From Atlantibacter sp. (GTDB lineage Bacteria; Pseudomonadota; Gammaproteobacteria; Enterobacterales; Enterobacteriaceae), in contig NZ_DAMAZC010000017.1 of the NCBI RefSeq assembly GCF_032075065.1, forward strand, positions 5,580 through 37,579: a stretch of 32,000 nucleotides of DNA, read 5' to 3'. Numbering within the stretch: the stretch's first letter is position 1; each line of letters starts with the position of its first letter. The position numbers and the translations under genes were made by a program. The notes under the pieces were generated by a model. It was not told where the DNA came from and did not search any database. It was given only the letters and a program-made list of their open reading frames with translations. Shown piece after piece: positions 4,478 to 26,503 of the stretch.

Positions 4478-5953
4478 ATGGCTAACTACTTTAATACACT
4501 GAACTTGCGCCAGCAGTTGGCGCAGTTGGGCAAATGCCGCTTCATGGCGCGCGATGAATTTGCTGATGGCGCGAGCTACCTTCAGGGTAAAAAAGTGGTC
4601 ATCGTCGGCTGTGGCGCACAGGGTCTGAACCAGGGCCTGAACATGCGTGACTCCGGTCTGGATATCTCCTACGCCCTGCGTAAAGAAGCCATTGCTGAGA
4701 AGCGCGCTTCATGGCGTAAAGCTACCGAAAACGGCTTCAAAGTAGGCACCTACGAAGAGCTGATCCCGCAGGCGGATCTGGTGGTTAACCTGACGCCAGA
4801 CAAACAGCACTCTGACGTTGTACGTTCCGTACAGCCGCTGATGAAAGATGGTGCAGCGCTGGGCTACTCTCACGGCTTCAACATCGTTGAAGTGGGCGAG
4901 CAGATCCGTAAAGACATCACCGTAGTGATGGTAGCGCCTAAGTGTCCAGGTACTGAAGTGCGTGAAGAGTACAAACGTGGTTTCGGTGTACCAACGCTGA
5001 TCGCGGTTCACCCGGAAAACGATCCGAAAGGCGAAGGCATGGCGATTGCCAAAGCATGGGCAGCGGCCACCGGTGGCCACCGTGCGGGCGTTCTGGAATC
5101 TTCTTTCGTTGCGGAAGTAAAATCTGACCTGATGGGCGAGCAGACCATTCTGTGCGGTATGCTGCAGGCCGGTTCTCTGCTGTGCTTCGACAAGCTGGTA
5201 GAAGAAGGCACCGACCCGGCATACGCTGAGAAACTGATTCAGTTCGGCTGGGAAACCATCACCGAAGCGCTGAAGCAGGGCGGTATCACCCTGATGATGG
5301 ATCGCCTCTCTAACCCGGCAAAACTGCGTGCATTCGCGCTGTCTGAGCAGCTGAAAACCATCATGGCACCGCTGTTCCAGAAACACATGGACGACATCAT
5401 CTCCGGTGAGTTCTCTTCCGGCATGATGGCTGACTGGGCGAACGACGACAAAAACCTGCTGACCTGGCGTGAAGAGACCGGCAAAACCGCGTTCGAAACC
5501 GCTGCGCAGTTCGACGGAAAAATCAGCGAGCAGGAGTACTTCGATAAAGGCGTACTGATGATTGCGATGGTGAAAGCAGGCGTTGAGCTGGCCTTCGAAA
5601 CCATGGTTGATTCCGGCATCATCGAAGAGTCTGCTTACTACGAATCACTGCACGAGCTGCCGCTGATCGCGAACACCATCGCCCGTAAGCGTCTGTATGA
5701 AATGAACGTGGTAATCTCCGATACCGCCGAGTACGGTAACTACCTGTTCTCTTACGCCTGCGTGCCGTTGCTGAAAGAATTTATGACCACGCTGCAGCCG
5801 GGTGACCTGGGCAAAGCGGTAGAAGGCAGCGCAGTGGATAACGCGCAGTTGCGTGACGTGAACGACGCGATCCGCAGCCATGCGATTGAAGCGGTAGGCC
5901 AGAAACTGCGCGGGTATATGACGGATATGAAACGCATCGCCGTTGCCGGCTAA
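4478..5953 (+). CDS. ilvC: Ketol-acid reductoisomerase (NADP+)
   Basis: This is a 491-aa ORF. The N-terminus [23 protein letters not shown] and the [17 protein letters not shown] Rossmann motif match E. coli IlvC. An AGG-containing SD (ACGAGGT) lies upstream. Confidence 0.97.
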
Positions 5954-11548: not shown

Positions 11549-11666
11549 AGTGTGGTAGAATATCAGCTAACTATTGCTTTACGAAAGCGTATCCGGTGAA
11601 ATAAAGTCAACCTAATGTTGGTTAATGCTACACCAACACGCCAGGCCTAATCTTGTGGAGTAAAAC

Positions 11667-11996
11667 ATGAGCGATAAAATTATTCACCTGACCGATGACA
11701 GTTTTGACACGGATGTACTAAAAGCGGACGGGTTGATTCTTGTTGATTTCTGGGCAGAGTGGTGCGGCCCTTGTAAAATGATTGCGCCGATTCTGGATGA
11801 AATCGCTGATGAATATCAGGGCAAATTGACCATTGCCAAGCTGAACATTGACCAAAACCCGGGCACGGCGCCGAAATACGGTATCCGCGGCATCCCTACG
11901 CTGCTGCTGTTCAAAAACGGCGAAGTGGCGGCGACCAAAGTGGGTGCGTTGTCTAAAGGTCAGCTGAAAGAGTTTCTGGACGCTAACCTGGCGTAA
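11667..11996 (+). CDS. trxA: Thioredoxin 1
   Basis: The 109-aa product is [55 protein letters not shown]..., with the WCGPC active site. It is essentially the E. coli TrxA sequence. Confidence 0.98.
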
Positions 11997-12347: not shown

Positions 12348-13607
12348 ATGAATCTTACCGAATTAAAGAATACGCCGGTTTCTGAGCTGATTACTCTCGG
12401 CGAAAATATGGGGCTGGAAAACCTGGCCCGTATGCGCAAACAGGACATTATTTTTGCCATCCTGAAGCAACACGCGAAGAGTGGCGAAGATATCTTTGGC
12501 GACGGTGTGCTGGAGATATTGCAGGACGGATTTGGTTTCCTCCGTTCCGCAGACAGCTCCTACCTTGCCGGTCCCGATGACATCTACGTTTCTCCCAGCC
12601 AAATCCGCCGTTTCAACCTCCGCACAGGGGATACTATCTCCGGTAAGATTCGTCCGCCGAAAGAAGGCGAGCGTTACTTTGCGCTGCTGAAAGTTAACGA
12701 AGTCAACTACGACAAACCCGAAAACGCCCGTAACAAAATCCTGTTTGAAAACCTTACCCCGCTGCACGCGAACTCCCGTTTGCGTATGGAGCGCGGTAAC
12801 GGCTCTACCGAGGATTTAACCGCGCGCGTACTGGATCTGGCATCGCCGATCGGTCGTGGCCAGCGTGGTCTGATTGTGGCGCCGCCGAAAGCCGGTAAAA
12901 CCATGCTGCTGCAGAACATTGCCCAGAGCATCGCTTACAACCATCCTGACTGTGTGCTGATGGTATTGCTGATCGACGAACGTCCGGAAGAAGTGACCGA
13001 GATGCAGCGTCTGGTGAAAGGTGAAGTGGTTGCGTCGACCTTCGACGAACCGGCATCTCGCCACGTTCAGGTTGCGGAGATGGTGATCGAGAAGGCTAAG
13101 CGCCTGGTTGAACACAAGAAAGACGTGATCATTCTGCTCGACTCCATTACCCGTCTGGCGCGCGCCTACAACACCGTGGTACCGGCTTCCGGTAAAGTGT
13201 TGACCGGTGGTGTGGATGCCAACGCCCTGCATCGTCCGAAGCGTTTCTTCGGTGCCGCGCGTAACGTGGAAGAGGGCGGTAGCCTGACCATCATCGCGAC
13301 TGCGCTGATCGATACCGGCTCCAAAATGGACGAAGTTATCTACGAAGAATTTAAAGGTACAGGCAACATGGAACTGCACCTGTCTCGTAAGATTGCTGAA
13401 AAACGCGTGTTCCCGGCGATTGATTACAACCGCTCCGGTACCCGTAAAGAAGAGCTGCTCACCACTCAGGAAGAGCTGCAAAAAATGTGGATCCTGCGTA
13501 AGATCATTCACCCGATGGGCGAAATCGACGCGATGGAATTCCTCATTAATAAGCTGGCCATGACGAAGACGAACGATGATTTCTTCGACATGATGAAGCG
13601 CTCTTAA
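12348..13607 (+). CDS. rho: Transcription termination factor Rho
   Basis: The 419-aa product begins [56 protein letters not shown]... and has the Walker A motif PPKAGKT. It is virtually identical to E. coli Rho. Confidence 0.98.
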
Positions 13608-13855: not shown

Positions 13856-14959
13856 GTGAATTTAATTACCTCGGGTGCCGAGCTAATCGGTATCTTTTTA
13901 TTCACAACCATTTTTCTTTTTTTCGCCCGCAAGGTGGCTAAAAAAATTGGATTGGTGGATAAGCCCAACTTCCGCAAACGCCACCAGGGTCTTATCCCCT
14001 TAGTGGGCGGAATTTCCGTCTTTGCAGGCATCTGTTTTACTTTTGCAATCGCTGACTACTATATCCCTCATGCCATGCTGTATCTGTCATGCGCCGGCGT
14101 TTTGGTACTGGTAGGCGCGCTGGACGATCGTTTCGATATCAGCGTAAAAATTCGCGCGCTGATTCAGGCCATCATTGCTGTCGTCATGATGTGGTTTGGC
14201 GGGCTGTATATGAGCAGCCTGGGCTATATTTTCGGCTCATGGGAAATGGTGCTCGGTCCGTTCGGCTATTTCCTGACACTGTTTGCGGTCTGGGCCGCCA
14301 TCAACGCTTTCAATATGGTTGATGGCATTGACGGGCTGCTCGGCGGGCTTTCCTGCGTGTCGTTTGCCGCCATGGGGCTGATTTTGTGGTTCGATGGGCA
14401 ACTCAGCCTCGCGATGTGGTGCTTCGCCATGATCGCCGCCATCCTTCCCTATATTCTACTGAACCTGGGCGCGCTGGGCCGTCGCTATAAAGTCTTTATG
14501 GGCGACGCAGGCAGTACGCTGATTGGTTTTACCGTTATCTGGATCCTGCTGGAAACCACCCAGGGCGCGACCCGTCCGATTAGCCCGGTCACCGCGCTAT
14601 GGATCATCGCCATCCCGTTAATGGATATGGTCGCGATCATGTATCGTCGGTTACGCCGCGGCATGAGCCCTTTCTCGCCTGACCGCCAGCATATTCATCA
14701 TTTGATCATGCGGGCTGGTTTTACTTCCCGACAAGCTTTTGTTCTGATTACCCTTGCCGCCGCGCTGCTGGCGGGCATTGGCGTCGCTTCCGAATATGCA
14801 CATTTTATTCCTGAATGGGTAATGTTGGCATTGTTTTTGCTAGCATTTTTCCTCTACGGGTACTGTATTAAACGGGCGTGGAAAGTCGCGCGTCTGATTA
14901 AGCGCATCAAACGTCGTATGCGCAGAAATAACGATAACAACCCGACATTAACCAAATGA
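13856..14959 (+). CDS. wecA: UDP-GlcNAc:undecaprenyl-phosphate GlcNAc-1-phosphate transferase
   Basis: The ORF track starts at 13775 (394 aa). Homology to E. coli WecA (MNLLTVSTDLISIFLFTT...) starts at the GTG at 13856 (VNLITSGAELIGIFLFTTIFLFFARKVAKK...), which gives 367 aa, the K-12 length. It is a polytopic membrane protein and the first gene of the ECA cluster. Confidence 0.93.
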   Translation: MNLITSGAELIGIFLFTTIFLFFARKVAKKIGLVDKPNFRKRHQGLIPLVGGISVFAGICFTFAIADYYIPHAMLYLSCAGVLVLVGALDDRFDISVKIRALIQAIIAVVMMWFGGLYMSSLGYIFGSWEMVLGPFGYFLTLFAVWAAINAFNMVDGIDGLLGGLSCVSFAAMGLILWFDGQLSLAMWCFAMIAAILPYILLNLGALGRRYKVFMGDAGSTLIGFTVIWILLETTQGATRPISPVTALWIIAIPLMDMVAIMYRRLRRGMSPFSPDRQHIHHLIMRAGFTSRQAFVLITLAAALLAGIGVASEYAHFIPEWVMLALFLLAFFLYGYCIKRAWKVARLIKRIKRRMRRNNDNNPTLTK

Positions 14960-14969
14960 AGCTGGGGAA

Positions 14970-16019
14970 GTGATGAAAGAGCAATTGCCAGGCACACAAC
15001 AGGGGATGGTTGAAAATGAGCTGGACGTGCGCGGTCTGTTCCGCACGTTCTGGGCGGGCAAAATCTGGATCGTCGGGTTTGCCGCGCTGTTTATCATCGG
15101 CGCGCTGGTGTACACCATTTTCGCACGTCAGGAGTGGAGCGCGACGGCAATCACCGATCGGCCTACCGTGAATATGCTGGGTAGCTACTACTCGCAGCAG
15201 CAGTTCCTGCGTAATCTGGATGTGAAAGCCAATCCTAATGGAGTTGAGCAGCCTTCGGTCATGGATGATGCGTATAAAGAATTCATCATGCAGCTTTCCG
15301 CCTGGGATACCCGCCGCGATTTCTGGCTACAAACCGATTATTACCAGCAGCGTAAAGCCGGTAACAGTAAAGTCGACGCAGCGCTGTTGGATGAACTGAT
15401 CGGCAATATCCAGTTCACGGCAGGGGATTTCACCCGCAATTTGAATGACAGCGTCAAGCTGATCGCGGAAACCGCGCCGGACGCCAATAACCTGCTGCGT
15501 CAGTACGTGGCCTTTGCAAGCGAGCGTGCCGCCAGCCATTTAAATGACGAACTAAAAGGTGCCTGGGCAGCGCGCACTATTCAGATGAAGGCACAGGTCA
15601 AGCGTCAGGAAGCCGTGGCCAAAGCTATCTATACCCGCAAAGTGCAAAGCGTGCAGGAAGCGTTAAAAATCGCCCAGCAGCACAATATTTCCACTAGCGA
15701 GACTCAGGTGCCTGCCGAGGAGCTGCCGGATTCCGAACTGTTTATGCTTGGGCGTCCGATGTTGCAGGCGCGCCTTGAGAATCTTCAGGCGGTCGGGCCT
15801 TCTTTTGACATCAGCTACGATCAAAATCGGGCGATGCTTACGACCCTTAATGTGGGTCCCTCGCTCGATCCCCGTTTTCAAACCTACCGTTATTTGAGAA
15901 CGCCTGAAGAACCGGTGAAGCGCGACAGTCCGCGCAGAGCATTCCTGATGATTATGTGGGGCGCAGTGGGTGCGCTCATTGGCGCAGGCGTTGCCCTGGC
16001 CCGTCGTCGTCCGACATAA
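14970..16019 (+). CDS. wzzE: ECA polysaccharide chain-length modulator (PCP-1 family)
   Basis: This is a 349-aa ORF. ENELDVRGLFRTFWAGKIW...RPTVNMLGSYYSQQQFLRNLDV...PRRAFLMIMWGAVGALIGAGVALARR is collinear with E. coli WzzE, with two terminal TM segments. The start is either the GTG at 14970 or the ATG at 14973. Confidence 0.92.
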   Translation: MMKEQLPGTQQGMVENELDVRGLFRTFWAGKIWIVGFAALFIIGALVYTIFARQEWSATAITDRPTVNMLGSYYSQQQFLRNLDVKANPNGVEQPSVMDDAYKEFIMQLSAWDTRRDFWLQTDYYQQRKAGNSKVDAALLDELIGNIQFTAGDFTRNLNDSVKLIAETAPDANNLLRQYVAFASERAASHLNDELKGAWAARTIQMKAQVKRQEAVAKAIYTRKVQSVQEALKIAQQHNISTSETQVPAEELPDSELFMLGRPMLQARLENLQAVGPSFDISYDQNRAMLTTLNVGPSLDPRFQTYRYLRTPEEPVKRDSPRRAFLMIMWGAVGALIGAGVALARRRPT

Positions 16020-16074: not shown

Positions 16075-16296
16075 GTGAAAGTATTAACCGTTTTTGGCAC
16101 GCGTCCGGAAGCCTTCAAAGCAGGCACGGTACGTCAGGTCGGTACTGACAGCACGCGTATTGTTGCGGAAGTCTCCCGTCTTCTGCATGACGATAGGGAA
16201 TATCAAGTTATGAGCAAGGCCCATAATCCTTGTGGCGATGGAAAAGCCTGCGTTCGCATTTTGCAAGCATTAGAAAATAATCGGATAACACTATGA
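16075..16296 (+). pseudogene. wecB: UDP-GlcNAc 2-epimerase remnant with an in-frame internal deletion (73 codons versus about 376)
   Basis: The GTG-started 73-aa ORF is [13 protein letters not shown]|[60 protein letters not shown]. The first roughly 14 residues match the WecB N-terminus ([19 protein letters not shown]...). The rest matches the WecB C-terminus (...TERPEAVTAGTVRLVGTD...NPYGDG...NNRISL). About 300 central codons, including the catalytic core, are absent. The stop still overlaps the wecC ATG (ATGA at 16293-16296). Confidence 0.85.
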
Positions 16297-17555
16297 GTTT
16301 CTCAACTATTTCAGTAATTGGGCTGGGATACATTGGTTTGCCAACCGCCGCCGCCTTCGCATCGCGTCAGAAGCATGTTGTAGGTGTCGACATTAGCTCC
16401 CGCGCGGTTGACACCATTAACCGGGGTGAAATTCATATTGTTGAACCAGAATTAGGCAGCGTCGTGAAAGCGGCGGTCGAAGGCGGTTTTCTGCGCGCGA
16501 CCACTCATCCCGAGGAAGCCGATGCGTTTCTGATTGCTGTGCCGACGCCATTTAAAGGCGAGCATGAACCAGACATGAAATACGTGCAGGCTGCGGCGGA
16601 ATCTATCGCCCCCGTGCTGCGCAAAGGCAACCTGGTGATCCTGGAATCCACATCGCCCGTCGGCTCTACCGAACAAATGGCGCAGTGGCTGGCGGCATTA
16701 CGCCCGGATCTCAGTTTTCCTCAACAGGCTGGCGATGATGCTGATATCAACATCGCCTATTGCCCGGAACGCGTCCTGCCCGGTCAGGTGATGGTTGAGC
16801 TGATTAAAAACGACCGCGTAGTCGGCGGGATGACGGCAGTCTGCTCCGCGCGCGCCAGTGAACTGTATTACATCTTCCTCGAAGGTGAGTGTGTGGTGAC
16901 AAACGCCCGCACCGCTGAAATGTGCAAACTAACCGAAAACAGCTTCCGCGATGTGAATATCGCCTTCGCCAATGAGCTGTCGCTGATTTGCGCCGATCAG
17001 CAGATCAACGTCTGGGAGCTGATTCGCCTGGCGAACCGCCACCCGCGCGTGAATATTTTGCAGCCCGGCCCAGGCGTTGGCGGGCACTGCATTGCAGTCG
17101 ATCCGTGGTTTATTGTGGCGCAGAATCCCGAGCAGGCGCGTCTTATCCGTACTGCCCGCGAAGTGAACGATTACAAACCGCATTGGGTGCTCGATCGCGT
17201 TAAAGCGACCGTCGCCGATTGCCTGACCGCCAGCGGCAAGCGCGCCAGCGAACTGAAAATCGCCTGCTTTGGGCTGGCGTTCAAACCTAATATCGATGAT
17301 TTGCGCGAAAGCCCGGCGATGGAGATTGCCCATCAAATCGCCCAGTGGAACAGCGGTGAAACGCTGGTGGTCGAACCCAATATTCATCAGCTGCCGGAAA
17401 GCCTTGCGCCGTACTGTAAGCTGACCGCGATTGACGAAGCGCTGGCCCAGGCCGATGTGCTGGTGATGCTGGTCGATCATGCGCCGTTTAAAGCGATTGA
17501 GGCCAGCGCTGTTCATCAAACGTGGATCGTCGATACCAAAGGGGTATGGCGATGA
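16293..17555 (+). CDS. wecC: UDP-N-acetyl-D-mannosamine dehydrogenase
   Basis: This is a 420-aa [30 protein letters not shown] (NAD-binding GxGxxG) and the remainder are collinear with E. coli WecC, ending ...DTKGVWR. Confidence 0.95.
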
Positions 17556-17575
17556 AGCGTGGTTTACGGGAGTAA
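17552..17575 (+). other. 7-codon mini-ORF at the position where rffG-rffH would lie (putative deletion scar)
   Basis: The sequence is ATG AAG CGT GGT TTA CGG GAG TAA. Its ATG overlaps the wecC stop as ATGA, which is where rffG normally starts. Its 3' end carries GGGAG (17568-17572), which serves as the SD for the wecD GTG at 17580. Nothing resembling RffG (about 355 aa) or RffH (about 293 aa) is encoded between wecC and wecD. Confidence 0.6.
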
Positions 17576-17579
17576 CGCC

Positions 17580-18257
17580 GTGACTATCCAGGCCCGCATT
17601 GATGCGCTTGAATGGGAAAGCCGGTTCTTTGGAATCAATACCGCAATCCTGCGCCTGGGCGATGATGCGCCGGTGCTGGATGCTACGCAGTTAACCGCCT
17701 GGTCCCGTTTGCAGGCGAAAGTGCCCGCGCAGCGTACAGACTGGCTGGACGATCTACAGCAGATGCAGTTTCAGCTGGTAGAAGGTGAAGCCGATTTTGT
17801 GCTGGATGTTGGCGTCGGTAATACCGACCCCGGCCTTCAGCCTGCGGGAGCAGAAGATATCCCCGCGCTGCGCGCCCTGGCGGCCACGCTGTTTGCCAAC
17901 AGCCGTTTTCGCGCCCCCTGGTATGCGCCTGACGCCAGCGGGCGTTTTTACGCTCAGTGGGTGGAGAATGCCGTTAACGGCAGTTTCGATCATACCTGCC
18001 TGGTACTGCGCGAGGACGACGGCGCAATCCGGGGATTTGTCACGCTGCGCCGCCTCAATGACAGCGAGACGCGTATCGGCCTGCTGGGCGGTTATGGCGC
18101 AGGGCGCATCCTGATGGATGCCGCGCGCCGCTGGTGTGAAATTCGTCAATCAAACGTGTTGCGTGTGGCGACCCAAATGGGCAATCGCGCCGCTATTCGT
18201 CGTTATATTCAAAGCGGTGCTACCCTGGACAGCGCCGCGTACTGGCTATACAGGTGA
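17580..18257 (+). CDS. wecD: dTDP-fucosamine acetyltransferase (GNAT)
   Basis: The ORF track starts at 17559. The GTG at 17580 gives MTIQARIDALEWESRFFGINTAILRL..., the same length register as E. coli WecD ([26 protein letters not shown]...). The product is 225 aa and contains the conserved SRFRAPWYAPDASGRFYAQW and LRVATQMGN...YIQSGA...AYWLYR blocks. Confidence 0.88.
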   Translation: MTIQARIDALEWESRFFGINTAILRLGDDAPVLDATQLTAWSRLQAKVPAQRTDWLDDLQQMQFQLVEGEADFVLDVGVGNTDPGLQPAGAEDIPALRALAATLFANSRFRAPWYAPDASGRFYAQWVENAVNGSFDHTCLVLREDDGAIRGFVTLRRLNDSETRIGLLGGYGAGRILMDAARRWCEIRQSNVLRVATQMGNRAAIRRYIQSGATLDSAAYWLYR

Positions 18258-18261
18258 ACAG

Positions 18262-19392
18262 ATGATCCCATTTAATGCTCCGCCCGTGGTTGGAACGGAA
18301 ATTGACTACATGCAGTCTGCGATGGGCAGTGGAAAATTGTGTGGTGATGGCGGCTTTACCCGTCGTTGCCAGCAGTGGTTTGAGCAACGCTTCGGCAGCG
18401 CCAAGGTATTGCTTACGCCGTCCTGCACCGCATCGCTGGAAATGGCGGCACTGCTGTTGGATATTCAGCCCGGCGATGAAGTGATCATGCCGAGCTATAC
18501 CTTCGTTTCTACCGCCAACGCTTTTGTACTGCGTGGCGCGAATATCGTCTTTGTCGATTTGCGTCCCGACACCATGAACATCGACGAAACGCTGATTGAA
18601 GCGGCGATAACCGATAAAACCCGCGCGATCGTGCCGGTACATTATGCGGGCGTCGCCTGTGAAATGGACGCGATTATGGCCATCGCGAAAAAGCATAGCC
18701 TGTTCGTGGTGGAAGACGCGGCGCAGGGCGTGATGTCCACCTATAAAGGCCGGGCGTTAGGTACCATTGGCCATATCGGCTGTTTTAGTTTCCATGAAAC
18801 CAAGAACTACACGGCGGGCGGCGAAGGCGGCGCGACGCTGATTAACGACCCGAAGCTGATTGAACGTGCGGAAATCATTCGCGAGAAAGGCACCAACCGC
18901 AGCCAGTTCTTCCGGGGCCAGGTCGATAAATATACCTGGCGGGATATCGGCTCCAGCTATTTGATGTCAGATCTCCAGGCGGCCTATTTGTGGGCGCAAC
19001 TGGAGGCGGCGGATCGCATCAACCAGCAGCGCCTGACGCTGTGGCAAACCTATTATGATGCGCTCGAACCGCTGGCGCGCGCAGGGCGTATCGAGCTGCC
19101 CTCCATCCCGGATTCCTGCGTCCATAACGCGCATATGTTTTATATCAAACTGCGCGATATCGACGATCGCAGCAATCTGATTGCCTGGCTGAAAGAGGCG
19201 GAGATCCTGGCGGTGTTCCACTACATCCCGCTGCACAGCTGTCCGGCAGGCGAAAAATTTGGCGAATTCTTTGGCGAAGACCGCTACACCACCCGCGAAA
19301 GCGAACGCCTGCTGCGGTTGCCGCTGTTCTACAATCTGGCGCCTTTCAACCAGCGTACGGTTATCAATTCGCTGTTAAGTTACTTCGCCTGA
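18262..19392 (+). CDS. wecE: dTDP-4-amino-4,6-dideoxygalactose transaminase (DegT/WecE family, PLP)
   Basis: The ORF track starts at 18118 (424 aa). Homology to E. coli WecE (MIPFNAPPVVGTELDYMQSAMGSGKLCGDG...) starts at the ATG at 18262, which gives 376 aa. The SFHETKN PLP-lysine motif is present. Confidence 0.94.
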   Translation: MIPFNAPPVVGTEIDYMQSAMGSGKLCGDGGFTRRCQQWFEQRFGSAKVLLTPSCTASLEMAALLLDIQPGDEVIMPSYTFVSTANAFVLRGANIVFVDLRPDTMNIDETLIEAAITDKTRAIVPVHYAGVACEMDAIMAIAKKHSLFVVEDAAQGVMSTYKGRALGTIGHIGCFSFHETKNYTAGGEGGATLINDPKLIERAEIIREKGTNRSQFFRGQVDKYTWRDIGSSYLMSDLQAAYLWAQLEAADRINQQRLTLWQTYYDALEPLARAGRIELPSIPDSCVHNAHMFYIKLRDIDDRSNLIAWLKEAEILAVFHYIPLHSCPAGEKFGEFFGEDRYTTRESERLLRLPLFYNLAPFNQRTVINSLLSYFA

Positions 19393-19393
19393 T

Positions 19394-20644
19394 ATGTCTC
19401 TTGCAAAAGCCTCAGTGTGGACGGCAGCGTCTACGCTTATCAAGATTGCCGCCGGTTTGCTGGTAATTAAACTGCTGGCGGTGGCGTTCGGCCCGGAAGG
19501 GGTCGGGCAGGCAGGAAATTTTCGTCAGCTCATTACCGTATTAGGCGTGCTGGCAGGTGCCGGGATTTTTAATGGCGTCACTAAGCTGGTTGCCCAGCAT
19601 CATGACGATCCTGAACAACTCAGACAGGTCACCGGCACGTCGTCGGCGATGGTATTAGGGTTTTCCACGCTGTTGGCGATCGTTTTTTTGCTGGCCGCAC
19701 AGCCCATCAGCATTGGCCTGTTTGGGCACGACCGTTACCAGAACGTGGTGCGGCTGGTGGCTTTTATCCAGATGGGTATCGCCTGGGCTAACCTGACGCT
19801 GGCGATTTTGAAAGGCTTTCGCGATGCGCGCGGCAATGCGCTGTCGCTGATTATCGGCAGTCTCATTGGCGTCGCCGCCTGGTATCTGTGTTATCGCCTC
19901 GGTGGCTATGAAGGCGCTTTGCTGGGGCTGGCGCTGGTGCCCGCGCTGGTGGTTTTCCCGGCGTTATGGATGCTTAAACAGCGTGAGCATGTGCCTTTTG
20001 GTTACCTGAAACCACGCTGGGATAGCCCTCTCGCCAGACAGCTGTCGAAGTTTACCCTGATGGCGTTAATCACGTCGGTTACGCTGCCCGTAGCGTATGT
20101 GATGATGCGAAACCTCATGGCGGCCCAGTACAGCTGGGATGAAGTCGGCATCTGGCAAGGGGTAAGTACTATCTCTGATGCCTATCTGCAATTTATTACC
20201 GCCACGTTCAGCGTCTGGCTGCTGCCTACGCTGTCGCGCTTAACCGCCAAACAGGACATCACCCGTGAAGTGTTGCGATCGCTGAAGTTTGTGCTTCCGG
20301 CGGTTGCTGCGGCGAGCTTAACGGTCTGGCTGTTACGCGATGTCGCTATCTGGTTGCTATTCTCGACGAAATTTACCGCGATGCGCGATTTGTTCGCTTG
20401 GCAACTAGTGGGCGATGTGCTGAAAGTGGGCGCTTACGTGTTTGGTTATCTGGTGATCGCCAAAGCGTCGCTGCGTTTTTATATCCTGGCGGAGCTTAGC
20501 CAGTTTGCGCTGCTGACCGGGTTCTCCCGCTGGCTTATCCCTACTCACGGTGCGCTGGGTGCGGCGCAGGCATATATGGCCACCTATATCGTTTATTTCA
20601 CCTTATGTTGCGGCGTATTTTTACTCTGGCGCAGGAAAGCATGA
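19394..20644 (+). CDS. wzxE: ECA lipid III flippase (MOP/Wzx family)
   Basis: This 416-aa polytopic membrane protein begins [64 protein letters not shown]. Its length and position equal E. coli WzxE. Confidence 0.92.
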
Positions 20645-21717
20645 ATCCGTTAATTCATATTCTGGGGTCGGATATTCCCCACCATAACCAAACCGTCCTG
20701 CGCTTTTTCAATGATGAATTAGCGTCGCTGGGGGCAGTCGCCCGGCGCTTTATGGTGGTTTCGCCGGATGCGTCTTTGCAAAGCCAGTATCCCGCGCTGG
20801 AAATCGCGTGCTTTCCCACTAAAAAAGCGCTCAGCGCTGCGGTTATCGCGCTGGCGCGTGGCGATCGCGCGCAGCGTTTTTTCTTCCACGGACAGTTTAA
20901 TGCGCCGCTGTGGATAGCGTTGCTGACCGGCGGGCTAAAATCATCCCAGGTGAGCTGGCATATCTGGGGGGCCGATCTGTATGAAGCATCGCGCAGTCTC
21001 AAGTTTCGTCTGTTCTATTTTCTGCGCCGACTGGCGCACAAGCGTATTGGGCACGTGTTTGCCACGCGCGGCGACCTGAATTATTTCCATCAGCGTAATC
21101 CTGCGGTGCCTGGCTCGCTGCTCTATTTCCCGACCCGCATGGATCCAGCGCTCAACACGCTGGAAAAAGCGCCAGCGGCGGGGAGATTGACCATTCTGGT
21201 AGGAAACTCCGGCGACAGGAGCAATGCGCATATTGCAGCGCTGAAGGCGGTGCACCAGCAGTTTGGCGATAACGTAGACGTGATTGTGCCGATGGGGTAT
21301 CCAGCCAACAATCAGGATTATATTGCGCAAGTTGAGCAGGCCGGAGCGTCTCTGTTCAGCGCGGGTAATCTGCATATTCTGCGCGAGCAGATGGCGTTTG
21401 ACGATTATCTGGCCATGCTGCGGCGCTGCGACCTGGGCTATTTTATTTTTGCCCGCCAGCAGGGCATCGGCACGCTGTGCCTGCTGATTCAGGCGGAGAT
21501 CCCCTGCGTGTTGAGCCGCCAAAACCCGTTCTGGCAAGATATGACGGAGCAGAATCTGCCGGTTTTGTTCACCGACGATATACTTAACGAAACGGTTATT
21601 CGCGAAGCGCAGCGTCAGCTTGCCCTGGTGGATAAAACAACCATCGCCTTCTTCCGGCCCGGCTATATCACTGGCTGGCATCAGGCGTTACGCGTGGCGG
21701 CGGGAGAGGCATCATGA
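20641..21717 (+). CDS. wecF: TDP-Fuc4NAc:lipid II Fuc4NAc transferase
   Basis: The ORF track starts at 20605. The ATG at 20641 overlaps the wzxE stop (ATGA) and gives [27 protein letters not shown]..., which matches the E. coli WecF start ([25 protein letters not shown]...). The product is 358 aa. Confidence 0.92.
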
Positions 21718-23075
21718 GTCTTTTGCAGTTTAGCGGCCTGTTTATCGTCTGGCTGTTGGCGACGCTGTTTATTGCTACCACCACCTGGTTTGAATTCCGC
21801 CGGGTACGGTTTAATTTCAATATATTTTTCTCGCTGCTGTTCCTGCTGACCTTTTTCTTCGGCTTTCCGTTTACCGCCTTACTGGTATTTCGCTTCGGCG
21901 TCGCCGTGGTGCCCGCGGAAGTGCTGCTACAAGCGCAGCTCGCCGCCGCCTGTTTCTATGGCATCTATTATGTTACCTATAAAACGCGGTTGAGGCCGCA
22001 GGGCAGCGAGCGCACGCGCCAATTGTTCTCGGTAAATCGCGTTGAGGCGCAGCTGACGTGGCTACTGTTGATGGCAGTAGCGCTGGTCAGCGTGGGCATC
22101 TTCTTTATGCATAACGGCTTTTTGCTGTTTCGCCTGCACTCCTACAGCCAGATATTTTCCAGCGAAGTGTCCGGCGTGGCCCTGAAGCGCTTCTTTTACT
22201 TCTTTATTCCGGCGATGCTGGTGATCTATTTCCTACGCCAGAGCGTCCGGGCGTGGCTATTTTTTCTGGTGGTGACCGTGGGGTTCGGTTTGCTGACCTA
22301 CGCCATCGTCGGCGGGACGCGCGCCAATATCATTATCGCCTTCGCGATCTTTTTGTTTATCGGCATTATTCGCGGCTGGATATCCCTGTGGATGCTGGCG
22401 GCGGCAGGGGCGATGGGCATTGTCGGGATGTTCTGGCTGGCGCTTAAGCGCTATGGGCTGGATGTCAGCGGTGATGAAGCGTTTTATACGTTCCTTTACC
22501 TGACCCGCGATACCTTCTCGCCATGGGAAAACCTGGCGCTGCTGCTACAGAACTACGGCAACATTGAATTCCAGGGGCTGGCACCTGTCGTGCGCGATTT
22601 TTATGTCTTTATTCCTACCTGGCTGTGGCCAGACAGACCTGGTATTGTGCTCAACTCGGCGAACTATTTTACCTGGGAAGTGTTGAACAACCACTCCGGT
22701 CTGGCGATTTCGCCGACGCTGATCGGTTCGCTGGTCGTGATGGGTGGGGTGTGGTTTATTCCGCTGGGCGCGGTCGTCGTCGGGCTGATTATCAAATGGT
22801 TTGACTGGCTGTATCAGCACGGAGTTACCGAGACCAATCGCTATAAGGCCGCGATTTTGCAGAGTTTCTGCTTTGGGGCCATCTTTAATATGATCGTGCT
22901 GGCTCGTGAAGGCCTCGATTCGTTTGTTTCACGTGTGGTGTTTTTTATGGTGATTTTCGGCGCCTGTTTGCTGATCGCCAAATTGCTGTACTGGATGTTG
23001 GAAAGTGCCGGGTTGATTCGTGGCAGGGTCCGTTCACTATCAGGGCGTTTTCCGCCCGGTCACAATCTCGGATAA
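21714..23075 (+). CDS. wzyE: ECA polymerase
   Basis: This 453-aa, highly hydrophobic protein begins [52 protein letters not shown]. The start overlaps the wecF stop (ATGA). Position and length match E. coli WzyE. Confidence 0.92.
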
Positions 23076-23083
23076 GGAAGCAG

Positions 23084-23824
23084 ATGACTGACGACAATAG
23101 CGCGCCGCGTTATAACTTGCGCGGGCTGAATTTGCTCGGTTGGCGTGATAAACAACATGCCCTCAATTATCTCTATGCGCAGGGACAGCTTAAATATGGG
23201 ACGCTGGTCGCCATCAACGCCGAGAAGATGCTCACGATTAATGACGATGCAGAAGTCAGGGCGCTGATTGAGGCGGCAGAGTACAAGTACGCGGATGGCA
23301 TCAGCGTCGTGCGTTCGGTACGCAAAAAATATCCCCAGGCGCAGATATCCCGCGTAGCGGGCGCAGACCTGTGGGAAGCATTAATGGCGCGCGCCGGGCA
23401 GGAAGGTACGCCGGTGTTTCTGGTCGGCGGAAAACCGCAAGTGCTGAGCGAAACGGTCAGCCAGCTACGGCAGCGTTGGCAGGTCAACGTGGTCGGCGAA
23501 CAGGATGGTTATTTCTCACCAGAATCGCGTCAGGCGTTATTTGAACGGATCCGCGATAGTGGTGCGAAAATCATCACGGTGGCGATGGGCTCGCCGCGCC
23601 AGGAAATATTCATGCGCGACTGCCGAAAGGTGCTCCCGGATGCGCTGTATATGGGCGTTGGCGGCACCTATGACGTCTTCACCGGCCATGTGAAGCGTGC
23701 GCCGAAAGCGTGGCAGCGCCTGGGGCTGGAGTGGTTATACCGTCTGCTCTCCCAGCCCAGCCGTATCACCCGCCAGCTCCGTTTACTGCGCTATCTCGCC
23801 TGGCATTACACCGGCAAGCTATAA
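23084..23824 (+). CDS. wecG: UDP-ManNAcA:lipid I ManNAcA transferase (WecG/TagA family)
   Basis: This is a 246-aa ORF. ...VAINAEKML...ADGISVV...FLVGGKP...MGSPRQE...[17 protein letters not shown] is typical of the WecG/TagA/CpsF family. It is the last gene of the ECA cluster. Confidence 0.93.
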
Positions 23825-23855: not shown

Positions 23856-24033
23856 CTGTCACGTCCTCAAGAATTTTTTCTAATTCTCAACATTTTTTTA
23901 ATCTCCCGTTTGCCATTTTGGAAAATTTAGGAAACCATGCGCGGGTTTTTAGCGCCCGATCTCCACCTCCGCGAAGTTGGGTGACGATTACCCCTATGGC
24001 ACGACCCATAACAATAACCGGCGCAGCCGGAGC

Positions 24034-24050
24034 AACAACATCACAACACA
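24034..24050 (+). promoter_or_regulatory. ACA-rich translational enhancer / probable GcvB sRNA target in the yifK 5' UTR
   Basis: AACAACATCACAACACA lies immediately upstream of the SD (GAGGA) and the ATG at 24059. An ACA-motif enhancer silenced by GcvB has been described for Salmonella yifK. Here I see only the motif. Confidence 0.5.
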
Positions 24051-24058
24051 GAGGATTT

Positions 24059-25444
24059 ATGGCAGAAAATAAACCAGAGCTTCAGCGCGGGCTGGAGTCG
24101 CGACATATTGAACTCATCGCCCTCGGGGGCACGATTGGCGTTGGGCTATTTATGGGCGCGGCGAGTACCCTGAAGTGGGCTGGCCCGTCGGTACTGCTGG
24201 CGTACATTATCGCTGGCCTGTTTGTCTTTTTTATCATGCGCTCTATGGGCGAAATGCTGTTTCTGGAGCCGGTGACCGGTTCATTCGCCGTCTACGCGCA
24301 CCGCTATATGAGCCCGTTCTTTGGCTATCTGACGGCCTGGTCGTACTGGTTTATGTGGATGGCGGTGGGGATATCAGAAATTACCGCTATCGGCGTTTAC
24401 GTCCAATTCTGGTTCCCGGAAATGGCCCAGTGGATCCCGGCGTTAATCGCAGTGGGACTGGTGGCGCTGGCGAATATGGCGGCGGTGCGGTTGTACGGTG
24501 AAATCGAATTCTGGTTCGCCATGATAAAAGTCACCACCATTATTGTGATGATCGTGATTGGCCTGGGCGTGATTTTCTTTGGCTTTGGCAACGGCGGCCA
24601 CGCGGTCGGCTTCTCGAACCTGACGGAACACGGCGGTTTCTTTGCCGGCGGCTGGAAGGGCTTCTTAACCGCGCTGTGTATTGTAGTTGCGTCATATCAG
24701 GGGGTGGAGCTGATCGGCATTACCGCCGGTGAAGCGAAAAACCCCCAGGTCACGCTGCGCAGCGCCGTCAGCAAAGTGCTGTGGCGTATTTTGATTTTCT
24801 ACGTAGGCGCGATTTTCGTAATCGTCACGCTGTTCCCGTGGGACCAAATTGGCAGCAACGGCAGCCCCTTTGTCCTGACCTTCGCTAAAATCGGTATTAC
24901 CGCCGCAGCAGGCATTATCAATTTTGTGGTGCTAACGGCGGCACTCTCGGGCTGCAACAGCGGCATGTACAGTTGTGGACGTATGCTGTACGCCCTGGCC
25001 AATAACCGCCAGCTACCGTCGGCGGTAGGTAAAGTCTCGAAAAACGGTGTTCCGGTGGCTGGTGTGGCGATTTCAATCGTAATCCTGCTGATTGGCTCCT
25101 GCCTGAACTACATCATTCCTAATCCACAGCGCGTGTTTGTTTACGTCTATAGCGCCAGCGTATTGCCGGGCATGGTGCCGTGGTTTGTGATCCTGATTAG
25201 CCAACTGCGCTTCCGCCAGGTGCATCGTCAGGCGCTGGTCAGCCATCCGTTCCGCTCCATGCTTTTCCCGTGGGCGAACTATTTGACGATGGCGTTCCTG
25301 ATTTGCGTGCTTATCGGCATGGGATTCAACGAAGATACCCGCATGTCCCTGATTGTCGGGGCGCTATTCCTGGCGCTGGTATCGGCGGCATACACGCTAT
25401 TCGGCTTCAATCGACACAATTCACTGCCTAAAGTGGAGAGATAA
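24059..25444 (+). CDS. yifK: APC-family amino-acid permease (threonine/serine carrier YifK)
   Basis: The ORF track starts at 23918 (508 aa). Homology to E. coli YifK ([36 protein letters not shown]...) starts at the ATG at 24059 ([24 protein letters not shown]...), preceded by GAGGA. This gives 461 aa, the K-12 length. Confidence 0.95.
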
Positions 25445-25546: not shown

Positions 25547-25623
<77 letters not shown>

Positions 25624-25694
25624 TTTACCCGGTGCTGGAGCTGCGGTGGTCTGTTAAGTAGGCAGAACCGCGTGGAAGTAAAGAATTAAGTCGT

Positions 25695-25771
25695 GGTGGC
25701 TATAGCTCAGTTGGTAGAGCCCTGGATTGTGATTCCAGTTGTCGTGGGTTCGAGTCCCATTAGCCACCCCA
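25695..25771 (+). tRNA. hisR: tRNA-His (anticodon GTG)
   Basis: The 77-nt sequence GGTGGCTATAGCTCAGTTGGTAGAGCCCTGGATTGTGATTCCAGTTGTCGTGGGTTCGAGTCCCATTAGCCACCCCA includes the His-specific extra 5' G(-1). The CCA end is encoded. Confidence 0.97.
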
Positions 25772-25786
25772 TTATTTAGTGGCGAT

Positions 25787-25873
25787 GCGAAGGTGGCGGA
25801 ATTGGTAGACGCGCTAGCTTCAGGTGTTAGTGTCTTAACGGACGTGAGGGTTCAAGTCCCTCTCTTCGCACCA
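25787..25873 (+). tRNA. leuT: tRNA-Leu (anticodon CAG)
   Basis: This 87-nt class II tRNA has a long variable arm: GCGAAGGTGGCGGAATTGGTAGACGCGCTAGCTTCAGGTGTTAGTGTCTTAACGGACGTGAGGGTTCAAGTCCCTCTCTTCGCACCA. Confidence 0.97.
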
Positions 25874-25911
25874 CAACTGAATTGAACTAAAAATTCAAAA
25901 AAGCAGTAATT

Positions 25912-25988
25912 CGGCGAGTAGCGCAGCTTGGTAGCGCAACTGGTTTGGGACCAGTGGGTCGGAGGTTCGAATCCTCTCTCGCCGACCA
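25912..25988 (+). tRNA. proM: tRNA-Pro (anticodon TGG)
   Basis: The 77-nt sequence is CGGCGAGTAGCGCAGCTTGGTAGCGCAACTGGTTTGGGACCAGTGGGTCGGAGGTTCGAATCCTCTCTCGCCGACCA. It is the last gene of the four-tRNA operon. Confidence 0.97.
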
Positions 25989-26305: not shown

Positions 26306-26503
26306 GTAGATGCTCATTCCATCTCTTATGTTCGCCTCAGGCTTCATAAACACAGGAATGACGCAGAGCCGTTTAACGGTGCTTATCGTCCACCGAGAGA
26401 TGTCGCTAACGCCTCATCAAACACCATGGACATAACGTTGAGTGAAGCACCTCTTTGTTGTCACAGACCTCTTTAACACCTGCCAACTGGCAGGTGTTTT
26501 TTT
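26306..26503 (+). ncRNA. glmZ: Small RNA GlmZ (activator of glmS translation, RapZ/RNase E substrate)
   Basis: GTAGATGCTCATTCCATCTCTTATGTTCGCCT...GACGCAGAGCCGTTTAACGGTGCTTATCGTCCAC...GTTGAGTGAAGCACC...TTGTTGTCA matches the E. coli GlmZ (SraJ/RyiA) sequence as I recall it. The first 32 nt are identical. It ends in the terminator ACACCTGCC-AACT-GGCAGGTGT plus T7 (26476-26503). Its location upstream of hemY is the K-12 location. Confidence 0.88.

Follow-up and report, generated by a model that had tools for sequence, protein, structure and literature searches.

The window analysed here, a 32,000 nt stretch of contig NZ_DAMAZC010000017.1 from Atlantibacter sp., contains the wec operon for enterobacterial common antigen (ECA), from which rffG and rffH, the genes found between wecC and wecD in Escherichia coli and Salmonella, are missing. 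Alignment with related genomes indicated that the 24 nt now separating wecC from wecD are very probably the scar of a spontaneous deletion of 1,916 bp, specific to an Atlantibacter lineage sister to A. subterraneus. The first-pass annotation of this DNA had identified the junction but was silent on a second deletion, in wecB 1.3 kb upstream, which changes the functional reading of the cluster. Feature coordinates are collected in Table 1.

Four other Atlantibacter lineages, three of them species representatives (L004, L005 and L006) and one a metagenome contig (L084), carried a full-length wecB followed by wecC-rffG-rffH-wecD. All four keep rffG and rffH at exactly the position of the scar; the alternative that this junction is natural across the genus, raised in the first-pass annotation, does not hold. 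The window does not come from A. hermannii, as proteins filed under that name include RffH orthologues 94–99 % identical to A. subterraneus RffH. The closest species representative was A. subterraneus (L004), with 97 % amino acid identity in WecC and approximately 92 % identity at the DNA level, and BLAST split its alignment to the window such that window position 17559 corresponded to L004 7267 and window position 17560 to L004 9184, with 1,916 nt absent. Left of the break (marked here by a slash) L004 reads GGCGATGAAACG/CATTCTGG, in which the wecC stop overlaps ATG-AAA-CGC of rffG, and right of it GGC CG/T TAT TTA CTG GAG TTG CTT C GTG CCC, the rffH tail, whilst the window across the break reads GGCGATGAAGCG/TGGTTTACGGGAGTAACGCC GTG. 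The rffG start at L004 7260–7267 is continuous with the 3′ end of wecC. In the nearest relatives the left 8 nt have their counterpart at the start of rffG and the right 20 nt in the tail of rffH, and the offset to the wecD GTG is unchanged; the window accordingly retains ATGAA(G)CG of the rffG start and CGT..TTTAC.GGAG....C-GTG of the rffH tail. The wecD start of the window is homologous to L004 9204, which lies 20 nt 5′ of the rffH TAA in that genome. The ancestral counterpart of the right-hand segment reads T TAT TTA CTG GAG TTG CTT C, so that the GGAG 5′ of wecD is ancestral and the TAA at 17573–17575 sits where the ancestral sequence had TTG. From the window alone it had been proposed that a deletion, precise and non-polar, extends from the opening codons of rffG to the closing codons of rffH; the alignment to congeners bears this out, and with it the origin of the seven remaining codons in the two gene ends and the placement of the predicted wecD ribosome-binding site within the rffH-derived tail.

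The break joins the third codon of rffG, an arginine codon, to the arginine codon 14 codons before the rffH stop, in frame with rffH. Microhomology at the break amounts to only 2–3 nt (CG/CGT), and the deletion is therefore best described as ordinary illegitimate recombination. A 6 nt repeat, TATGGC, was considered as a deletion substrate and rejected, as that join would delete the wecC stop, which is intact. The deletion left intact the stop of wecC, the signals for starting rffG (AAGGGG...ATGA) and the rffH tail, which holds the wecD Shine–Dalgarno sequence and abuts the GTG of wecD.

The junction itself reads GGGGTATGGCGATGAAGCGTGGTTTACGGGAGTAACGCCGTGACT. The 3′ end of wecC (GGC GAT GA) terminates at TGA 17553–17555, and the ATG of a seven-codon scar open reading frame (ORF; 17552–17554) overlaps this stop as ATGA. 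The AAGGGG inside the wecC 3′ end is the ancestral rffG Shine–Dalgarno sequence. These elements have the geometry of small-ORF coupling, whereby the start overlaps the wecC stop, the TAA lies near the GTG at 17580, and the Shine–Dalgarno sequence of wecD lies inside the ORF. An ORF of seven codons is statistically meaningless alone, and its weight rests on positional homology. An in-frame GTG at 17559 was tried as the wecD start and rejected in favour of 17580, which agrees with the homologous start in relatives, the spacing from GGGAG and the 225 aa NCBI protein. Searches with tblastn using E. coli RffG and RffH found no homologue between wecC and wecD or in the searched parts of the window, and both neighbours were confirmed by NCBIfam equivalog models; wecD thus directly follows wecC with no dehydratase or thymidylyltransferase gene between them, as in the 10-gene ECA variant. 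No FRT or loxP site was matched with up to three mismatches allowed (these sites measure 34 nt and the spacer 24 nt). Dedicated scans of the junction found no insertion sequence (IS) end, inverted repeat or target-site duplication, with short chance-level repeats alone in 17350–17800, and no plus-strand terminator was found between wecC and wecD. The first-pass coordinates of the wecC stop, the ATGA overlap, the MKRGLRE ORF, GGGAG and the wecD GTG all matched the sequence, as did its statement that recombinase sites, IS ends and duplicated targets are absent.

From this anatomy a course of events can be proposed. The first product of the deletion would have been a 16-codon fusion ORF, MKRYLLELLRARPRQY-stop (i.e. 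MKR-YLLELLRARPRQY-stop), overlapping the wecD start as rffH had. Subsequent point mutations, including TTG to TAA, would have cut the fusion to seven codons ending 4 nt 5′ of GTG. With the rffG Shine–Dalgarno sequence (AAGGGG) and the ATGA overlap retained, the scar ORF may be translated as rffG was, and ribosomes leaving wecC would re-start on it and be delivered to the wecD start. The geometry of the scar suits such termination–reinitiation, and the operon is presumably translationally coupled through it. As there is no terminator and no frame problem, the deletion is non-polar by structure.

The scar and the 5′ end of wecD have diverged strongly. Within 17560–17609, which takes in the tail derived from rffH and codons 1–10 of wecD, 14 of 47 comparable sites carried substitutions private to the window, against a background of 2.4 % over 6.5 kb. 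No other cluster in the region was as strong, and the next independent 50 nt segment had 6. The first ~10 codons of wecD are heavily substituted, and species with rffH almost invariably have PVRASI at the N-terminus of WecD. Release from the dual-frame constraint of rffH and wecD accounts for part, not all, of the cluster; contributions may have come from adaptive changes that re-tuned the wecD initiation region or from error-prone repair during the event.

The interval between wzzE and wecC is only 273 nt in the window and holds the remnant of wecB. This remnant retains WecB residues 1–13 and approximately 313–376, with the tblastn match limited to 313–376, and was called as a 73 aa Epimerase_2 protein in three assemblies. 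BLAST placed the breakpoints at L004 4917/5827. In L004 two direct repeats, CGTCCGGAAGCCATCAA at 4901–4917 near the N-terminus and CGTCCGGAAGCCATTAA at 5810–5826 near residue 313, each encode RPEAIK. The repeats, CGTCCGGAAGCCAT(C/T)AA, lie in phase, with 14 nt perfect and 17 of 18 nt matching when extended, and because they lie in phase the deletion is in frame. A deletion between repeats of this kind carries the signature of slippage or short-homology recombination. In every other covered locus (~120 loci) wecB was full length; its deletion is the truly lineage-specific feature of this operon, and more notable than the loss of rffG and rffH.

The wecB remnant has continued to change. Substitutions in it on the window branch were five non-synonymous (N) to one synonymous (S), which differed from the pooled intact genes (Fisher p = 0.0013). 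Three of its 29 columns that are invariant in 80 other species carried private changes, namely L21Q, Y53C (in the NPYGDG motif) and K67E. Divergence is far greater in the scar than in the wecB remnant, a weak indication that rffG and rffH were lost first and that the wecB deletion may be the later event.

Table 1. Features of the wec operon in the window, with the evidence for each
Feature	Position	Strand	Description
wecA and wzzE	13856..16019	+	intact; TIGR02380 553 bits; NF008645 647 bits
wecB remnant	16075..16296	+	73 aa, in frame, ends NNRITL-stop; 909 nt (303 codons) deleted relative to L004
wecB deletion junction	16102..16118	+	CGTCCGGAAGCCTTCAA, one hybrid copy merged from two direct repeats
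wecC (UDP-N-acetyl-D-mannosamine dehydrogenase)	16293..17555	+	420 aa, intact; NF008286 823 bits, positions 1–420/420
Scar ORF MKRGLRE-stop	17552..17575	+	ATG AAG CGT GGT TTA CGG GAG TAA; identical in L001, L002 and L003
rffG-derived part of scar	17552..17559	+	ATG AAG CG, i.e. codons 1–2 and two bases of Arg3; L004 7260–7267 reads ATGAAACG
rffH-tail-derived part of scar	17560..17579	+	TGGTTTACGGGAGTAACGCC; colinear with L004 9184–9203, rffH frame
GGGAG, predicted wecD Shine–Dalgarno sequence	17568..17572	+	7 nt 5′ of GTG; counterpart CTGGAG kept in L004–L006 and E. coli
wecD (dTDP-fucosamine acetyltransferase)	17580..18257	+	225 aa, GTG start; NF008212 310 bits, profile 1–231/232
wecE, wzxE, wecF, wzyE and wecG	18262..23824	+	intact, full length; NCBIfam equivalog models, all above cut-off

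Both deletions were found in three independent assemblies, 99.88–100 % identical to the window and with differing single nucleotide polymorphisms (SNPs): a 79 kb JGI contig (3300011726; 8 mismatches in 13.3 kb), a Logan contig from SRR27200988 (6 mismatches in 5.1 kb) and a Logan contig from SRR1749304 (no mismatches in 4.6 kb). None of the mismatches fell inside the scar or the wecB remnant. Among WecD-encoding contigs, a look-up yielded just the two from Logan. The collapse of rffG-rffH and most of wecB during assembly has little in its favour beyond the general possibility in metagenome-derived sequence and, given that different samples share both junctions, differ in SNPs elsewhere and bear later substitutions at the junctions, its probability is negligible. 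The recurrence of the same junctions therefore excludes misassembly, an objection foreseen in the first-pass annotation, and likewise a one-off laboratory construct. Two in-frame, non-polar deletions in one operon do resemble design, as in scarless or recombinase-mediated engineering of a laboratory or vaccine strain, but FRT and loxP are absent, the lineage, which shows sequence diversity, comes from environmental or metagenome samples, natural direct repeats coincide exactly with the wecB junction and the scar has gone on changing since the deletion, such that an engineered origin is scarcely credible. Somewhat less remote, yet still very improbable, is that the form without rffG-rffH was imported by homologous recombination from another genus, or is ancestral with a gain in the relatives. 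The two genes are absent from most neighbouring genera, and at its N-terminus the WecD of the window (ARIDAL) is similar to the Buttiauxella protein (ARLDAL); however, both flanks, with the rffG start codons and rffH tail among them, are of Atlantibacter type right to the junction, the junction sequence was found in no other taxon examined, and four Atlantibacter lineages keep the genes. An exact-match scan for the scar sequence gave no matches in a set of metagenome contigs that evidently excludes JGI 3300011726, and a WecD-based scan of metagenomes turned up neither a further carrier of either deletion nor a single-deletion intermediate. Separately, the SNPs between samples were tightly clustered, with 4 in 52 nt of wecA in L002 (window 14230–14281) and 6 in 76 nt of rhlB in L001 (10772–10847), which suggests small recombination tracts rather than scattered mutation.

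The remaining operon genes showed no sign of relaxed selection. Pairwise ratios of non-synonymous to synonymous substitution rates (dN/dS) between the window and A. subterraneus were 0.02–0.15 for wecA, wzzE, wecC, wecD, wecE, wzxE and wecF, the same range as for the intact pair L004–L005. When substitutions were polarized with L005 and L006 as outgroups, the window branch displayed N35:S161 and the A. subterraneus branch N43:S178, i.e. no relaxation on the window branch. Of 1,239 columns of the seven intact genes that do not vary among 80 other species, only 2 held private changes, compared with 3 of 29 in the wecB remnant (Fisher p = 1e-4); at the rate of the remnant, even at its lower 95 % bound, ~27 hits would be expected (P = 7e-10). 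The genes wzyE and wecG also looked normal in the constraint test. Since the remnant decays while the intact genes stay constrained, time has elapsed since the two deletions, and selection still acts on the other genes of the operon. On the best reading, unlinked paralogs have taken over the missing steps, because the remaining wec genes are still under purifying selection; these paralogs are probably located elsewhere in the genome, plausibly in an O-antigen or capsule locus. The dTDP-4-keto-6-deoxyglucose needed for WecE, WecD and WecF would be supplied by rmlA/rmlB (rfbA/rfbB) paralogs, as is presumed for many Enterobacteriaceae without rffG-rffH in the wec operon, and a second UDP-GlcNAc (UDP-N-acetylglucosamine) 2-epimerase would replace WecB. 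The redundancy of RffG with RfbB and of RffH with RfbA is established (Marolda & Valvano 1995, as cited in PMC12212991; PMC12136496), and the loss of rffG-rffH is tolerated in view of it. The RffH homologues among the matches listed were ECA-cluster orthologues only, at least 94 % identical within Atlantibacter, and are uninformative on paralogs.

The chief rival to compensation is a recent, uncompensated loss of ECA, in which wecB and rffG-rffH are gone, there are no paralogs and the other wec genes are too newly orphaned to decay. Two separate biosynthetic branches were hit in one operon, the wecB remnant gathers changes at invariant residues, and a block at wecB stops the pathway at lipid I, avoiding the toxic lipid II build-up of later blocks (PMC7439462). 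Nevertheless, the nine other genes are all intact, the window branch has no non-synonymous excess, the 2 private hits on invariant columns compare with at least 27 expected at the lower-bound rate of the remnant, and the diverged scar suggests an old loss of rffG-rffH, yet wecD, wecE and wecF are still constrained; we regard uncompensated loss as unlikely, with perhaps one chance in eight. Several points weigh against our own account in turn. Neither rmlA, rmlB nor a second wecB was found in the 32 kb window and the matching short contigs of the lineage, and we infer compensation; the case for coupling of wecD via the scar ORF is structural; an in-frame join has a one in three chance of arising anyway; the age of the wecB deletion rests on 5–6 substitutions; and the substitution density in 17560–17609 is ~3 times the synonymous-site (neutral) rate of the window branch. 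It is also conceivable, if rather improbable, that an operon stripped of its WecB and RffG/RffH entry steps whilst its downstream genes remain selected has been wired to another glycan locus for ECA, or makes a different product, or belongs to a natural ECA-null. Were it true, supply from another glycan locus would couple ECA to O-antigen or capsule type, and on the ECA-null reading this would be an enterobacterium that naturally lacks ECA without being an endosymbiont. Among Enterobacterales, only endosymbionts with reduced genomes are given as ECA-negative in reviews (PMC7439462). A free-living lineage that has lost wecB must therefore either possess a replacement epimerase or depart from that list.

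Gene order in the window is ilvDA-ilvYC-ppiC-rep-gppA-rhlB-trxA-rho-wec-yifK-tRNA(Arg,His,Leu,Pro)-GlmZ-hemYXDC, and the wec operon is flanked as expected for an ECA operon by rho (12348–13607), a permease in the yifK position (23918–25444; NCBIfam match NF008016/ThrP) and tRNA-Arg (25547). Full-length equivalog matches were obtained for nine genes (WecA, WzzE, WecC, WecD, WecE, WzxE, WecF, WzyE and WecG); the full 10-gene set wecA-wzzE-wecB-wecC-wecD-wecE-wzxE-wecF-wzyE-wecG is incomplete in the window owing to the 73 aa remnant of wecB. The proteins WP_313080019.1, WP_313080021.1 and WP_313080023.1, labelled 'Atlantibacter sp.' by NCBI, are exactly the WecB remnant, WecC and WecD. E. coli genomes reached only ~77 % identity, which excludes E. 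coli as the origin of the window, and served solely as the reference for the 12-gene layout. Non-coding features were in their usual synteny, namely the thermometer in the TrxA 5′ untranslated region (11609–11696), tRNA Arg-His-Leu-Pro (25547–25988) and the small RNA GlmZ (26306–26503).

We surveyed 80 Enterobacteriaceae species representatives retrieved with WecC and 42 informative metagenome loci for the recurrence of this loss. The rffG-rffH pair lay between wecC and wecD in 29 of the 80 representatives, rffG only in one (Kluyvera genomosp. 1) and neither gene in 50; both were also missing from 34 of the 42 metagenome loci. Representatives without the pair belonged to Enterobacter, Kosakonia, Pseudescherichia, Leclercia, Buttiauxella, Phytobacter, Yokenella and Franconibacter, and included Escherichia ruysiae, E. 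whittamii and Citrobacter youngae ATCC 29220. Several of these genera (Enterobacter, Kosakonia, Leclercia and Buttiauxella) are listed as ECA-positive (PMC7439462). The loss of rffG-rffH is thus not unusual, and the window is a further instance of a known, common operon variant. The pair is absent here, as the first-pass annotation stated, but the 12-gene cluster that it called canonical reflects E. coli and Salmonella, with 50 of 80 representatives lacking both genes and 10-gene clusters published.

Junctions among the loci without rffG-rffH comprised at least 10 unrelated sequence types. Independent losses with differing breakpoints were seen within Escherichia, Pseudocitrobacter and Citrobacter, other species of which keep the genes. 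In Pseudocitrobacter faecalis (L058, 7255–7300) the first five rffG codons were kept together with the palindrome GCCCTCTTTAGAGGGC; in C. youngae ATCC 29220 (L069, 7255–7275) the wecC TGA overlaps and fuses directly onto the wecD GTG; and in E. ruysiae and E. whittamii (L081 and L072, 7255–7300) a GAGGGAG tract was kept before wecD. The wecD start was spared in all rffG-rffH losses, and the tract just 5′ of it was kept in several. Loss of rffH alone, with rffG kept, was observed in Kluyvera genomosp. 1 (L057, 8290–8600) and in L124; in L057, ~230 nt of unrelated sequence stands in place of rffH, bounded on one side by the first codons of rffH and on the other by the final ~15 nt ahead of wecD. 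The public records L006, L009 and L042 are probably mislabelled or chimeric: the locus of 'Citrobacter freundii M-21' is Atlantibacter-like, an enterobacterial wec operon is present in 'Vagococcus sp. WN89Y', and in 'Enterobacter hormaechei B56' WecB shares 99 % identity with the E. coli protein. In sum, the window offers a codon-resolved example of the conversion of a 12-gene to a 10-gene ECA operon, which has happened many times in Enterobacteriaceae with the wecD start spared each time, and it cautions against calling the E. coli operon canonical or reading the absence of rffG-rffH as a defect. To a specialist, the wecB deletion and the evidence for out-of-operon compensation would likely be of most interest.

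Comparable operons have been described elsewhere. The ECA1 cluster of Cronobacter sakazakii comprises 10 genes and lacks rffG as well as rmlA2 (Ogrodzki & Forsythe 2015, PMC4599207), and 10 genes also make up the Dickeya wec cluster (PMC7877592). As in the window, the wec operon of these clusters lies between rho and yifK/tRNA-Arg, with wecC followed by wecD and with rffG and rffH (rmlA2) absent, and 10-gene and 12-gene forms are polymorphic within the genus. The window differs from them in that its deletion endpoints are mapped to the codon, a fusion scar ORF survives and wecB persists as a 73 aa remnant. The 12-gene wec (rfe-rff) operon of E. coli K-12 and Salmonella shares gene order and flanks with the window, and its wecC/rffG ATGA overlap and rffH/wecD overlap represent the ancestral state seen in the Atlantibacter relatives. 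Unlike that operon, the window lacks rffG, rffH and most of wecB, and both nucleotide-sugar precursors have to be supplied by sources outside the operon. Spontaneous deletions between short direct repeats, by slipped-strand or RecA-independent recombination, were classically mapped in E. coli lacI. The wecB deletion is of this type, having occurred between in-phase 14 nt repeats with one hybrid copy left, whereas the rffG-rffH deletion, with its 2–3 nt of microhomology, was not repeat-mediated. In its short leftover ORF, which would keep the downstream ribosome-binding site and coupling geometry, the rffG-rffH scar resembles engineered in-frame, non-polar deletions (FRT scars or scarless exchange), but it has no recombinase site and is natural, fixed in a wild lineage and mutated since.

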